Assembly: GCA_023957375.1 (NCBI GenBank)
Contig: JAMLHB010000003.1
Span: 461,342 to 525,341, forward strand
DNA from: Flavobacteriales bacterium
Lineage (GTDB): Bacteria > Bacteroidota > Bacteroidia > Flavobacteriales_F > PHOS-HE28
DNA: 64,000 nt
Reading direction: 5' to 3'
Shown: piece after piece, positions 26,147-60,620 of the stretch
How the letters are laid out: every line of letters starts with the position of its first letter
Position numbering within the stretch: position 1 is the first letter of the stretch
Made by a program: the position numbers and the translations under genes
The notes under the pieces: generated by a model
The model's input: the letters and a program-made list of their open reading frames with translations, nothing else
Database searches by the model: none
What the model was told of the DNA's origin: nothing

Positions 26147-27652
26147 ATGAACCTTTACTCCCGCAAGCAACGCTGGAAGCTGGTCCTCGCCCTGCTGGCA
26201 CTGGCCATTGTGGGAGCCTCGCTTTGGTACAGCAACCGCATCGTGAACAAGGTGAGGCAGGAGGAGCGGCGCAAGGTGGAATTATGGGCCGAGGCCGTGC
26301 GCAACCGCGCCCAACTGGTGAACTACACCGACTCGCTCTTCCACCGGCTGCGCTTGGAGGAACGCAAGCGCGTGGAGCTGTGGGCCGATGCCCAGGTGCA
26401 CCTGGCCAGCGACGACGTGAACGACCTGAGCTTCTACCTGAAGGTGGTGAGCGAGAACACCACCATCCCGGTGATCATCACCGACGACAAGGGCCGCCCC
26501 GTGGCCAGCCGCAACGTGGACCCGCGCGTGGAGCACGACAGCGATTCGCTGCGGGCCGAGGCCGCGCGCATGGACGCCGCGCACGAGCCCATCCCCATCA
26601 CCCTGTACGGCAGCCGCCGCCAATACCTGCACTACAAGGATTCGCACATCGTCACCGAGCTGGAACAGGTGATGGACAACATCATCCGCAGCTTCATCAG
26701 CGAGACGGTGATGAACACCGCCGCCGTGCCGGTGATCTACACGGACAGCACCCGGGCACGGGTGATCGAACACAGCAACATCGACCCGGAGGTGATGGCG
26801 GACAGCATGTTGCTGCGCGCGCGCATCCTGGCCATGGGCCAGGCCAACCCGCCCATCGAGGTTTCGCTGGCAGGGCGCGGCAGGCACTACATCTTCTACG
26901 AGGAGAGCCGCGTGATCACTCAACTGCGCTACTTCCCCTACGTGCAGCTCATCATCATTGGTCTGTTCCTGTTGGTGAGCTACGCCCTGTTCAGCCTGTT
27001 CCGCAACGCCGAGCAGAACCAGGTGTGGGTGGGCATGGCCAAGGAAACCGCGCACCAGCTAGGCACGCCCCTCAGTTCGCTGATGGCCTGGATGGAGCTG
27101 CTGAAGGAGAACGGCGCAGACCCCGCGGCCGTGGGCGAAATGCGCAAGGACGTAGCCCGCTTGGAGACCATCACCGAGCGCTTCAGCAAGATCGGCTCCG
27201 CACCCGACCTGGTGCCGGAAAACCTGGACCGCACCCTACGTGAAACCGTTCAGTACCTGCGCCCGCGCATGCCATCACGGGTGAAGATCGATGTAGCCCC
27301 GCCCCATAACCCGGACCTGGCCGTACCGCTGAACCGCGCATTGTTCAGCTGGGTACTGGAAAACCTGATCCGCAATGCGGTGGATGCCATGGAGGGCGAA
27401 GGAAGCATCACCATCGGCACCGAACAGGATGGGAACAAGGTGCATGTGGATGTTACCGATACCGGCAAAGGCATTCCCGCATCGAAGGCCAAGACCGTGT
27501 TCCGCCCCGGCTACACCACGAAGAAACGCGGATGGGGACTGGGCCTCTCACTCACCAAGCGCATCATGGAAAGCTACCACAAAGGCAAGATCTTCGTGAA
27601 GCGCTCCGCACCGGGAAAGGGGACCACATTCCGGATCACCTTGAGGGGGTAA
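26147..27652 (+). CDS. sensor histidine kinase, 501 aa
   Basis: Two TM segments. H-box ETAHQLGTPLSSLMAWMELL, N box LENLIRNAVDA, and G boxes DTGKGI / GWGLGLSL. Confidence 0.88.
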   Translation: MNLYSRKQRWKLVLALLALAIVGASLWYSNRIVNKVRQEERRKVELWAEAVRNRAQLVNYTDSLFHRLRLEERKRVELWADAQVHLASDDVNDLSFYLKVVSENTTIPVIITDDKGRPVASRNVDPRVEHDSDSLRAEAARMDAAHEPIPITLYGSRRQYLHYKDSHIVTELEQVMDNIIRSFISETVMNTAAVPVIYTDSTRARVIEHSNIDPEVMADSMLLRARILAMGQANPPIEVSLAGRGRHYIFYEESRVITQLRYFPYVQLIIIGLFLLVSYALFSLFRNAEQNQVWVGMAKETAHQLGTPLSSLMAWMELLKENGADPAAVGEMRKDVARLETITERFSKIGSAPDLVPENLDRTLRETVQYLRPRMPSRVKIDVAPPHNPDLAVPLNRALFSWVLENLIRNAVDAMEGEGSITIGTEQDGNKVHVDVTDTGKGIPASKAKTVFRPGYTTKKRGWGLGLSLTKRIMESYHKGKIFVKRSAPGKGTTFRITLRG

Positions 27653-27660
27653 CCCTGCCC

Positions 27661-28510
27661 GTCATTGCGAGCCCGCCTCGGGCGAAGCAATCCAGTACAG
27701 GAGCTTTAGGCTGGACTGCTTCGGCCCAGAGCCGCCTCGCAGTGACGAGCCATTGCAACACGTCATTGCGAGCCCGCCTCGGGCGAAGCAATCCAGTACA
27801 GGAGCTGTAGGCTGGACTGCTTCGGCGCAAAAGCCGCCCCGCAGTGACGAACCATTGCAACACGTCATTGCGAGCCCGCCTCGGGCGAAGCAATCCAGTA
27901 CAGAAGCTTAGGCTGGACTGCTTCGGCGCAAAAGCCGCTCCGCAGTGACGAGCCATTGCAACACGTCATTGCGAGCCCGCCTCGGGCGAAGCAATCCAGT
28001 ACAGGAGCTTTAGGCTGGACTGCTTCGGCGCAAATGCCGCCTCGCAGTGACGAGCCATTGCAACACGTCATTGCGAGCCCGCCTCGGGCGAAGCAATCCA
28101 GTACAGGAGCTTTAGGCTGGACTGCTTCGGCGCAAAAGCCGCCTCGCAGTGACGAGCCATTGCAACACGTCATTGCGAGCCCGCCTCGGGCGAAGCAATC
28201 CAGTACAGGAGCTGTAGGCTGGACTGCTTCGGCGCAAAAGCCGCCTCGCAGTGACGAGCCATTGCAACACGTCATTGCGAGCCCGCCTCGGGCGAAGCAA
28301 TCCAGTACAGGAGCTGTAGACTGGACTGCTTCGGCGCAAAAGCCGCCTCGCAGTGACGAACCATTGCAACACGTCATTGCGAGCCCGCCTCGGGCGAAGC
28401 AATCCAGTACAGGAGCTTTAGGCTGGGCTGCTTCGGCGCAAAAGCCGCCTCGCAGTGACGAGCTCATTGCAACACGTCATTGCGAGCCCGTTGAGTGCGA
28501 AGCAATCCAT
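27661..28510. repeat. tandem array: 8 full plus 1 partial copies of a 101-103-bp unit, each made of two inverted REP-like palindromes
   Basis: Units start (GTCATTGCGAG) at 27661, 27762, 27864, 27965, 28067, 28169, 28271 and 28373, with a partial unit at 28476. The units are near-identical with scattered substitutions. Confidence 0.95.
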
Positions 28511-29702
28511 GGTATGGCTTCACGCCTGGCCTGCACCCCGGCAGTGCGGCCGTAGAGTGGAACCGTCCCACCTTTGCCCCGTGGTCGGCCTCTACTTCCA
28601 TATCCCTTTCTGCCACCGGGCGTGCACCTACTGCGATTTCCATTTCAGTACCTCGCTGCGCACCAAGGAACCGGTGCTGGCCGCCATGCGGAAGGAGCTG
28701 CGCGATCGCATGGGTGAACTGGCGGGCGCCCCGTTGGCCACCATCTATTTCGGCGGTGGCACGCCCAGCCTGCTTTCCCCGCAGGAACTTGGCCTGTTGT
28801 TGGACGATGCACGTTCCGTGGCCCGGGTGGAGCAGAATGCAGAGGTCACCGTGGAGGCCAACCCGGATGATGTGACCGCTGAAATCCTGCACGCTTGGCG
28901 CAGCATCGGCATTACGCGCGTCAGCCTCGGCATCCAAAGCTTCCGTGAAGAAAGGCTGCGGTGGATGAACCGCTCGCACAATGCAGCCCAGTCGCAACGC
29001 GCCATTGAGCTGGTGGCCAAAGCAGGATTGGACTCCTGGACCATCGACCTGATCTACGGCCTGCCCGGCATGAACATGGCCGAATGGGACGAGCAGCTCT
29101 CCATCGCCCTGCAACACGGCATGCCCCACCTCAGCGCTTACTGCCTCACGGTGGAAAAACGCACCGCCCTGCACAAGCAAGTGGCCACGGGGCGCGTTCG
29201 CCTTCCCGATGATGGCCAACAGGCGAATCAGTTCCTACACCTCGTTCAGCGCATGGAAGGGGCCGGCCTGCTGCAGTATGAGATCAGCAACTTCGGGCGT
29301 GAAGGGCATTTTGCCAAGCACAACACCAGCTACTGGAAAGGCGTGCCCTACTTAGGCATCGGGCCGTCGGCGCATTCGTTCGACGGCGTGCAGCGCCGCT
29401 GGAACGTGGCCAACAACGTGCGCTACGCGGATGGCGTGGAACAGGGAACCGTGTACTGGGAAGAAGAAACCCTGACGGAAAACCAGCGCATCAACGAACG
29501 CGTGCTCACCGGCCTGCGCACCATGTGGGGCGTGGAGCTGGCCGCGCTCGGCAATTGGTTCCACAAGACCAATGAAGCCGTGATCCAGCATTACTTTGCG
29601 CTGGATGAACTGGAAATGCGCGACGGACGATTGATCCTCACCCCGAAAGGGAGGAACTTCGCGGACCGCATCGCCTCGGACCTGTTCCTGCCCGCCGAAT
29701 GA
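28509..29702 (+). CDS. hemW: radical SAM heme chaperone HemW (HemN-like, oxygen-independent coproporphyrinogen oxidase family)
   Basis: It carries the motif GLYFHIPFCHRACTYCDFHF. The start is uncertain: ATG 28509 lies inside the last partial repeat unit, and GTG 28557 or 28581 are alternatives closer to the conserved N-terminus. Confidence 0.87.
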   Translation: MVWLHAWPAPRQCGRRVEPSHLCPVVGLYFHIPFCHRACTYCDFHFSTSLRTKEPVLAAMRKELRDRMGELAGAPLATIYFGGGTPSLLSPQELGLLLDDARSVARVEQNAEVTVEANPDDVTAEILHAWRSIGITRVSLGIQSFREERLRWMNRSHNAAQSQRAIELVAKAGLDSWTIDLIYGLPGMNMAEWDEQLSIALQHGMPHLSAYCLTVEKRTALHKQVATGRVRLPDDGQQANQFLHLVQRMEGAGLLQYEISNFGREGHFAKHNTSYWKGVPYLGIGPSAHSFDGVQRRWNVANNVRYADGVEQGTVYWEEETLTENQRINERVLTGLRTMWGVELAALGNWFHKTNEAVIQHYFALDELEMRDGRLILTPKGRNFADRIASDLFLPAE

Positions 29703-59929: not shown

Positions 59930-60620
59930 CTCGTCCGCGTTTGCAACGCGGGCGAAGATCGAGGTGCGCTTGCAGCGCGCACACTGAGCCACTCCCTGCC
60001 TGTCGGGCTTCCCGCCGGGCCGCACGGGTCCTGGTGTTCGTTGAATAGCTTCGCTTCATGTCCAACGGCCCGAGCAGCCTTTCCGATAAGGTCGGGTGGT
60101 CGTTGCAAACGACAGGGAAGGGGCACCCGCGCTGCAAACGCGGGCGGGAATGTCAGGTTGAAGATGTTTTACGATGAGCGATGAAGCGGCCGGAGGCCAA
60201 TGTGAAAGAGGGCACTCGGCACAGCCGAGCGCCGGGAGGGGGGTCATGTGGCAGAGTTGTTCGGTATCCCGGCGCTCGGGTCCGGCCTGTGGGTGGCCTG
60301 TGCGGCCCGAGTGCCCGGCTGTCCAACCGCCTCTGGCGGGCTCCTGCTACTTTCATCTTCATCCGGTTGCGGAAGGCCTTGTTACCTTGCCGGAGCACTA
60401 CGCCCACAGCAGTGCCCATGCGGAGGGCCGGTTGAAGATGTTTTACGATGAGCGATGAAGCAGCCGGGGGCGAATGTGAAAGAGGGCACTCGTCACAGCC
60501 GAGCCCCGGGAGGGAGAGAATGATTTAGGGATGGTCGCTGCAAACGACCGTGATGTTGCGCCCGCTTTGCAAACGCGGGCGAGAATGTGGGAACGCACGG
60601 TTGAAGGATCGAAGGCCGCA
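59930..60620. repeat. non-coding cluster of short GC-rich hairpins with TGCAA(A) loops, plus 85-bp direct repeats
   Basis: Hairpins: CCGCG-TTTGCAA-CGCGG (~59935-59953), GTCGTT-GCA-AACGAC (60099-60113), CCCGCG-CTGCAAA-CGCGGG (60126-60144), GTCG.TGCAAACGAC (60534-60548) and CGCCCGC-TTTGCAAA-CGCGGGCG (~60558-60581, imperfect). The 85-bp repeats are at 60156-60240 and 60430-60514. Confidence 0.65.
60348..60419 (+). pseudogene. 24-codon relic resembling the C-terminal motif of Y1 (IS200-like / REP-associated, RAYT) transposases
   Basis: It translates as YFHLHPVAEGLVTLPEHYAHSSAH. The remembered consensus is YIH.NPV.AGLV..PE.Y.(W/Y)SSA. No catalytic HUH/Y region is present upstream. Confidence 0.4.

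Follow-up and report, generated by a model that had tools for sequence, protein, structure and literature searches.

What kind of repeat lies between a sensor histidine kinase gene and hemW in this Flavobacteriales genome, does it encode anything, and how did it come to its present form? The window, that is, the whole 64,000-nucleotide stretch of contig JAMLHB010000003.1 analysed here, carries at 27660-28509 a tandem array of short palindromes. An initial annotation, made from the letters alone, had likened this array to the bacterial interspersed mosaic elements (BIMEs) of enterobacteria. We regard it with reasonable confidence as non-coding and as the product of tandem amplification, the amplified unit being a single canonical heads-out heterodimer from a family of CGTC-tagged palindromic repeats. 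In such a dimer two slightly different palindromes face each other with their CGTC ends outside.

A tandem array of alternating palindromes

Tandem Repeats Finder places the array at 27660-28509 with a period of 102, 8.3 copies, 96% matches, 0% indels and a score of 1544, which agrees with the 8.3 tandem units of about 102 bp first described. The unit lengths are, in order, 101, 102, 101, 102, 102, 102, 102 and 103 bp. A relaxed scan of the window placed 17 elements, nine on the plus and eight on the minus strand, and the initial count of about 17 elements in alternating orientation was accurate. Plus-strand elements start at 27660, 27761, 27863, 27964, 28066, 28168, 28270, 28372 and 28475. 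The minus-strand elements occupy 27712-27747, 27813-27849, 27914-27950 and 28016-28052 in the first half of the array and 28118-28154, 28220-28256, 28322-28358 and 28424-28460 in the second. The array and its parts are as follows.

27660..28509, no strand: whole array, (A-B) x 8 followed by a terminal degenerate A'; 17 hairpin elements, from Tandem Repeats Finder, the element map and the unit alignment
28066..28100, plus strand: representative A element, CGTC-ATTGC-GA-GCCCG(cct)CGGGC-GAA-GCAAT-CCA; eight identical copies
28101..28117, no strand: variable spacer within the heads-out dimer; starts with the G of the CCAG tail and ends in CTG; the element cores lie 21 nt apart
28118..28154, minus strand: representative B element, CGTC-ACTGC-GA-GGCGgC(tttt)GCGCC-GAA-GCAGT-CCA in the minus-strand reading; eight copies
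28475..28509, plus strand: terminal A' element with degenerate distal part, probably the ancestral singleton; shares the 15 nt CGAAGCAATCCATGG with a sister metagenome-assembled genome (MAG), L127; no stable fold

The 5' arm GTCAYTGCGAG, allowing at most one mismatch, gives 16 matches against 2.6 expected from shuffles. Nine are on the plus strand, at exactly the nine positions listed initially, and seven on the minus strand; there is no match outside the array within the 64-kb window. The two-arm pattern TGCGAG-N5-30-GAAGCARTC matches 14 times in the window, with 0.01 expected. In an alignment of the units no A copy differs from the other seven. Variation between units comes to 13 differences, all in the spacer, the linker and B, and more numerous in the outer than in the inner units.

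The whole 102-bp unit, spacers included, repeats at 96% identity and there are no unique spacers. This rules out a CRISPR array, as had been argued from the start. Rfam covariance models gave no match to the window at gathering score, only chance-level miRNA matches (E 0.5-7).

Element structure and folding

The elements share one plan: an unpaired CGTC head, a 5-bp basal stem, a GA/GAA internal loop (2x3), a distal hairpin and a CCA tail. The CGTC head is present in 17/17 elements, as is CCA directly after the basal stem. In the window the distal stem has 5 bp and closes a loop of 3-4 nt, CCT in A and TTTT in B. The basal stem is ATTGC/GCAAT in A and ACTGC/GCAGT in B, where a C-G pair replaces T-A at position 2. 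Both sides of the B stem are altered, so that A and B each keep their own pairing. A k-turn or loop-E reading of the GA/GAA loop was dropped on our own reasoning, its strand lengths being off consensus.

Folded as single-stranded DNA, element A reaches -8.5 kcal/mol (z -2.75) and element B -7.7 kcal/mol. One A-B dimer can form a single branched hairpin of -26.2 kcal/mol (z -4.4), and two array units reach -58.7 kcal/mol (z -7.1); as RNA, two units reach -104.5 kcal/mol (z -7.8). The terminal A' (28475-28509) has lost its distal hairpin and folds at only -2.7 kcal/mol (z +0.5). The early proposal of a hairpin in every element therefore holds for A and B, which fold in the shape described and stably as dimers and double units, but not for the last element.

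Assignment to the CGTC-tagged repeats

Di Nocera, De Gregorio & Rocco (2013) described a superfamily of CGTC-tagged repetitive extragenic palindromic (REP)-like palindromes (PMC3733652). Our comparison covers the text and the peptide supplement of that paper. As worded in the text, the repeats carry an unpaired CGTC (variants TGTC, CCTC) at one end, stems that nearly always begin with complementary A-T at positions 1 and 2, and a short unpaired tail near CCA. Dimers with the CGTC ends outside and spacers of 20-100 nt predominate, heterodimers are frequent and clusters rare. The repeats are sited just 3' of open reading frames (ORFs), have no associated transposase genes, and occur in Proteobacteria, Chlorobi, Bacteroidetes, Spirochaetes and Thermotogae (PMC3733652).

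Measured against this description, the window elements share the CGTC head, the AT stem start, the CCA tail, the heads-out heterodimers and the location at an ORF 3' end. As in the superfamily, no linked transposase was found, and Bacteroidetes and Alphaproteobacteria are among the hosts of both. A has A-T at both stem positions; B departs at position 2, by the compensated change to C-G. The four families that the text describes, CGTC-1 to -4, have continuous 8-9 bp stems and 4-5 nt loops (PMC3733652), unlike the 5-bp basal stem, GA/GAA internal loop and variable-length distal hairpin found here. The supplement lists REP-encoded peptides of CGTC-1 to -4, and the window element corresponds to none of them. 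Because head, stem start, tail and dimer agree while stem and loop dimensions and peptides do not, we place the element in the superfamily and outside CGTC-1 to -4. Judged by its sequence, it would be a member that fits none of the four families as worded in the text of PMC3733652. It also stands apart in organisation, with 17 elements in tandem where clusters are reported as rare, and in abundance: what was sampled of this lineage shows no high copy number of the window-type family. A search of the literature for the arms and for the typical spurious peptides brought up nothing but primers or unrelated text, and no description of the exact motif.

Distribution and structure of the family

The initial annotation had suspected that similar elements occur in unrelated phyla, and the database matches bear this out. 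GTCAYTGCGAG-N4-30-CGAAGCARTC occurs in at least 120 IMG/VR stretches; the IMG/VR statistics below are drawn from the matches listed for this pattern and related scans. A 32-nt consensus matches plasmids of Novosphingobium (at least 40 places in one replicon), Methylobacterium, Methylosinus, Legionella lytica, Aulosira, Calothrix and Fischerella. It also matches Helicobacter canis prophage records; the prophage sequence L241 carries four copies, all on one strand. The family is found in soil metagenomes as well. Its hosts span Alphaproteobacteria, Legionella, Cyanobacteria and Helicobacter prophages, and the DNA motif occurs in any frame and orientation across phyla. A metagenome scan for the A-type centre returned 31 contigs, two of them the window locus and the others from unrelated organisms, and a scan for the dimer-specific spacer returned 0 matches. 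Together these two scans give no evidence of dispersed copies of the window dimer.

In the 183 exact IMG/VR copies listed, GTC is preceded by T in 96 and by C in 79, and the tail reads C-Y-(C/A). Their centre is 4-26 nt long and most commonly CGNAG, which with the flanking G and C makes GC-GNA-GC. The basal stem begins ATT/AAT in 181/201 listed elements and covaries (TTGC/GCAA, TTCT/AGAA, TTCC/GGAA, TCCC/GGGA, CTGC/GCAG, TCGC/GCGA). A distal hairpin is present in 173 of 191 listed copies, with triloops in 125 and C(GNA)G in 94. A review of the mini-hairpin DNA d(GCGNAGC) of Hirao and co-workers gives a melting temperature of 76.5 C for d(GCGAAGC) and 39 C for the tetraloop RNA counterpart r(GCGAAAGC) (PMC13037366). 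This hairpin is more stable as DNA, which suggests that in the family it is the DNA strand that is structured, though the window loops are CCT and TTTT.

Sister families with the common GTCA head, other basal stems and a symmetric GA/GA loop were also seen in IMG/VR loci (e.g. L067 10081-10245). Their arms, GTCATTCTGAG...CGAAGAATC and GTCATTCCGAG...CGAGGAATC, yield spurious peptides of the VILSEAKNL and RFAQND types.

Organisation and strand of the elements

The 201 listed IMG/VR elements form 165 groups: 131 singletons, 33 pairs and one cluster of four. Close pairs number 36 among the matches listed, with 24 heads-out, 2 heads-in and 10 head-to-tail. In the 24 heads-out dimers the modal gap is 22-24 nt, and the spacers begin with CAG and end in CTG. 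The window dimer, with its 21-nt gap and CAG...CTG spacer, is the family's standard heads-out heterodimer. Pairing of an ATTGC element with an ACTGC or ATCGC element recurs in unrelated soil contigs. Heterodimers of the ATTGC + ACTGC kind elsewhere make the difference between A and B a family trait and not a local accident. A different type of array, with four head-to-tail copies at a 33-nt period, occurs at L052 2695-2818.

Singletons tend to share a strand. Same-contig pairs of singletons lie on the same strand in 53 cases and on opposite strands in 7, and 19/24 contigs with at least two singletons are uniform (IMG/VR and metagenome loci L007-L126 and L207-L237). The strand reading CGTC...CCA is the C-rich strand in 69/98 contigs (p about 7e-5, the contigs not being independent samples). 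Split by crude ORF calls, the bias is 16:12 for sense, 18:4 for antisense and 58:25 for singletons with no neighbour. A replication-linked mechanism could account for it, which is a lead only, given the non-independent contigs and rough gene calls. Six IMG/VR contigs (L043, L045, L048, L062, L068 and L073; e.g. L068 1-12640) have an extreme whole-length GC skew of -0.19 to -0.46 at 53-62% GC, and every singleton element in them is on the C-rich strand.

Three unrelated sequences have a truncated or degenerate 5' arm (CATTGCGAG / CATTGCAAC) at a distance of 11-20 nt on the upstream side of a full element: L234 (about 49-108), L241 (14360-14409) and the window linker (e.g. 28155-28167). New copies could insert into or beside existing ones.

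These features hint at a broader interpretation, in which the element acts as single-stranded DNA across phyla and spreads or homes by means of a yet-unidentified enzyme, the window holding a rare landed dimer that was amplified in a lineage otherwise without the family. Five observations lead towards it. The arms are near-invariant from Flavobacteriales to Alphaproteobacteria, Legionella, Cyanobacteria and Helicobacter prophages; the GNA mini-hairpin tips are DNA-specific; partners differ by compensated changes that keep each hairpin while spoiling the long palindrome; within a contig the singletons keep to one strand, the C-rich one by preference; and truncated 5' arms just upstream of full copies suggest insertion into existing copies. 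We hold this interpretation as tentative, possible but on the unlikely side.

The locus in relatives and other assemblies

The best genome matches are uncultured Flavobacteriales MAGs, many of them from activated sludge, the nearest (L127) with 81% HemW identity. Across 80 related Flavobacteriales loci (1,298,897 nt) the element search found one strict family match and at most five relaxed ones. L127 has a single degenerate element, CATCATTGCCAGCCGCCACGGCGAAGCAATCCATGG, 5 nt past the kinase stop, and its last 15 nt (CGAAGCAATCCATGG) are identical to the end of the window A' plus its flank. At the same site the other relatives have unrelated intergenic DNA or none.

Independent assemblies bear on the length of the array. 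L001 spans the kinase-hemW gap with 2.3 units only, most other short-read contigs end at the first element and others after about 4 units, so that a comparison of array length gives 2.3 units in L001 and at least 4 in other short-read assemblies. From this one might suspect that the size of the array is an assembly artefact and that the true locus holds one or two dimers. The distinct unit variants stand in a fixed order, however, and L003, an independent assembly of the same species, repeats units 1-3 exactly and in order, followed by a unit like unit 7. That pattern is what short-read assemblers would leave on collapsing near-identical inner units. At least four distinct array units exist independently of the window assembly, and we consider an artefact quite unlikely.

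Flanking genes and repeat open reading frames

The genes and ORFs around and within the array are listed here.

26147..27652, plus strand: sensor histidine kinase gene (Pfam HATPase_c and HisKA); identical protein on 23 public contigs read
27865..28467, minus strand: spurious 200-aa ORF with DCFARGGLAMT repeats
27956..28555, plus strand: spurious 199-aa ORF with VIASPPRAKQSS repeats
28568..28577, plus strand: CCACCTTTGC box, candidate hemW promoter element, downstream of the array; relatives have a TTTG box
28581..29702, plus strand: hemW with corrected GTG start, 373 aa, from the public gene call, the TIGR00539 profile and relatives

The first CGTC head begins 7 nt past the kinase TAA stop. 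At the other end, the array had been thought to fill the whole gap and to supply a candidate ATG (28509) for hemW. In fact about 71 bp separate its end from a GTG at 28581, and four lines of evidence place the hemW start there instead. The gene call on a public contig gives a protein of 373 aa beginning at this GTG (MVGLYFHIPFC). Position 3 of the TIGR00539 HemW equivalog profile aligns to residue 4 of the 373-aa protein. In the HemW search, 80 relatives align from query residue 1-3. An ATG, GTG or TTG stands at the position exactly matching GTG 28581 in 10/10 relatives read.

Of the ten relatives read (L127-L135 among them), eight have a TTTG box (CCTTTGC) at 4-25 nt upstream of hemW, as the window has at 28568-28580; the box resembles the Bacteroidetes -7 promoter element. 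The array therefore probably sits between the kinase stop and hemW's own promoter. A box so near the start codon suggests that the hemW mRNA may be leaderless or almost so. Two related MAG contigs (L128 1-430 and L136 1-330) appear to be chimeras or to have been rearranged immediately upstream of the kinase C-terminus or hemW. The 3' part of the kinase is fused there, in an in-frame-like manner, to unrelated coding sequence, and these may be assembly joins at conserved sequence.

Long ORFs stay open through the array, and if read as genes they would make a repeat protein of 34-residue units encoded on one strand. The 199- and 200-aa ORFs span the stretch with units of exactly 102 nt. Both strands are open because the repeated unit is free of stops, whereas the 101-nt units (1 and 3) and the 103-nt unit (8) shift the frame; at unit 8 the plus-strand peptide switches register from SDEPLQHVIASPP to SDELIATRHCEP. 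Pfam matches to the repeat ORFs are all sub-threshold with no passing stretch, the sequence is missing from the orthologous loci, and elsewhere the DNA motif turns up in any frame and orientation across phyla. A real repeat protein is extremely improbable. The two ORFs are artefacts, as the initial annotation had already read them.

The position of the array raises a second question, whether it is a selected regulatory device. Its hairpins could form a barrier that ends kinase transcription or insulates hemW from it, or that protects the 3' end of the kinase mRNA, with copy number tuning the effect. A gap of 7 nt separates the kinase stop from the first element, the far end of the array stays short of the conserved hemW start and its TTTG box, and the RNA folds of the array are very stable, as given above. 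In the family at large, 55% of element groups lie within 60 nt of a long-ORF end, compared with 17% of random positions, and the text of PMC3733652 presents many REPs as transcribed and acting in RNA. On the other hand, relatives have one element or none at the kinase-hemW site. Singletons show no clear preference for sense or antisense relative to the neighbouring ORF (37 vs 31 and 17 vs 16), and the commonest family tips are C(GNA)G triloops, far stabler in DNA than in RNA (PMC13037366). Scans of the array region for sigma-70 promoters and intrinsic terminators found nothing above background, and the array contains no U-tract terminators. We judge selection for such a role rather unlikely.

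Origin and effect of the array

We return to the tandem amplification of one heads-out heterodimer. The array ends in a partial A-type unit, the eight A copies are identical, and the outer units differ more than the inner ones; these points fit the following likely history. An ancestral singleton A' would have stood directly after the kinase stop. An A-B dimer would next have come to stand on its upstream side, making A-B-A'. This arrangement has two A copies in the same orientation at a distance of 102 bp, and unequal recombination or replication slippage could have used them as direct repeats. Hairpin formation would favour either process, leading to (A-B)n-A' with the inner units kept near-identical.

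The array is most likely neutral or selfish DNA. It has no terminator signature, relatives do without it, and there is no evidence that the array is selected. Its main physical effect would be that stable hairpins or cruciforms follow one another over a long distance upstream of the hemW promoter, in the 3' part of the kinase transcript. A role as a barrier to transcription or exonucleases is possible as a secondary effect.

Several points weigh against this account. The window has no family element outside the array, a count that covers 64 kb of this genome. The figure of 8.3 copies comes from the window, and short-read assemblies show 2.3 or at least 4 units, though they may be collapsed. 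The order of events (singleton, dimer, amplification) is drawn from one sister species. The stem and loop dimensions depart from those of CGTC-1 to -4, and, as regards a functional effect, the terminator scan was negative.

The array accounts for the short-read assembly breaks after the kinase gene in this Flavobacteriales species. A practical gain is that two false genes of 200 aa are removed and the hemW start is fixed, and the variable-number repeat could be usable for strain typing. The locus further indicates that local tandem amplification can multiply CGTC elements in a genome with few other members of the family. CGTC-type repeats are still without a known mobilising enzyme, and any candidate enzyme or mechanism must explain the heterodimer rule, the 22-24 nt spacing, the GNA tips and the strand bias.

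Comparison with known repeat systems

The enterobacterial BIMEs (REP/BIME-2) and the REP doublets that form hairpins (REPINs) with REP-associated tyrosine transposases (RAYT) are the closest match in layout, with alternating imperfect palindromes in tandem and short linkers. As in BIMEs, the inverted doublet of the window is able to fold as one long hairpin. BIMEs are further characterised by linker motifs that bind IHF, gyrase or Pol I. This resemblance invites the proposal that the array is a BIME proper, of GTAG-type REPs amplified or maintained by a RAYT (Y1) transposase with a relic near 60348. The ORF at 60174-60458 does hold WQ...YFHLHP, a partial match to the W and Y motifs of class-2 Y1 transposases (PMC6006769). 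However, all 17 heads read CGTC and not GTAG (GT[AG]G), and the text of PMC3733652 reports CGTC repeats without transposase genes. The putative relic has no match in Pfam, NCBIfam, the PDB or a plasmid tblastn search and lacks the HuH part; it lies 32 kb from the array with no CGTC element near, and a different palindrome set flanks it. A crude motif scan of 154 element-bearing loci (1.37 Mb) found no HuH-W-Y ORF, in keeping with the published account. The initial likening to BIMEs thus stands for architecture and not for membership of the BIME/RAYT family, which we consider very unlikely, and the RAYT-like relic finds no support beyond its partial motif. In the window, the 80 related loci and the element-bearing loci searched, we found no GTAG head, no cognate RAYT flanked by REPs and no set of hundreds of dispersed copies.

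The surroundings of this ORF (59930-60590) form an unrelated second repeat region. Its palindromes are GTCGTTGCAAACGAC and CCCGCG-CTGCAAA-CGCGGG (three copies). Two direct repeats accompany them, one of 108 nt (60156-60263 and 60430-60537, 85% identity) and one of 60 nt (60094-60153 and 60529-60588). The WQ...YFHLHP stretch between them, at 60249-60365, could be what remains of the C-terminus of a Y1 transposase that had atypical REPs of its own, a reading for which the databases give no support.

A gene enclosed by inverted elements, in the manner of a REPtron, was looked for in L064 and L067, where only short spurious ORFs were found. The 'transposase family protein' match in a Helicobacter prophage was rejected as a dedicated enzyme: the gene encodes a Mu-type transposase and has an element close to its 3' end.

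Neisserial CGTC-1 mosaic elements, which we take to be dRS3 and the neisserial intergenic mosaic elements (NIMEs), offer a second comparison. Like the window array, the neisserial intergenic mosaic elements with CGTC-1 repeats, as treated in the text of PMC3733652, are clusters of CGTC-type palindromes between genes. In NIMEs several repeat families are interleaved at many loci, whereas the window has one locus with a homogeneous 102-bp unit.

The mini-hairpin DNA d(GCGNAGC) resembles the family at large, of which 94/191 listed copies are tipped by a C(GNA)G triloop, mostly as GCGAAGC; the window elements differ in carrying CCT and TTTT loops on 5-bp GC stems. Set beside these systems, the array is a tandemly amplified cluster of CGTC-type REP dimers, unusual in structure and organisation, and as such a fairly ordinary kind of repeat cluster and not a BIME/RAYT system.

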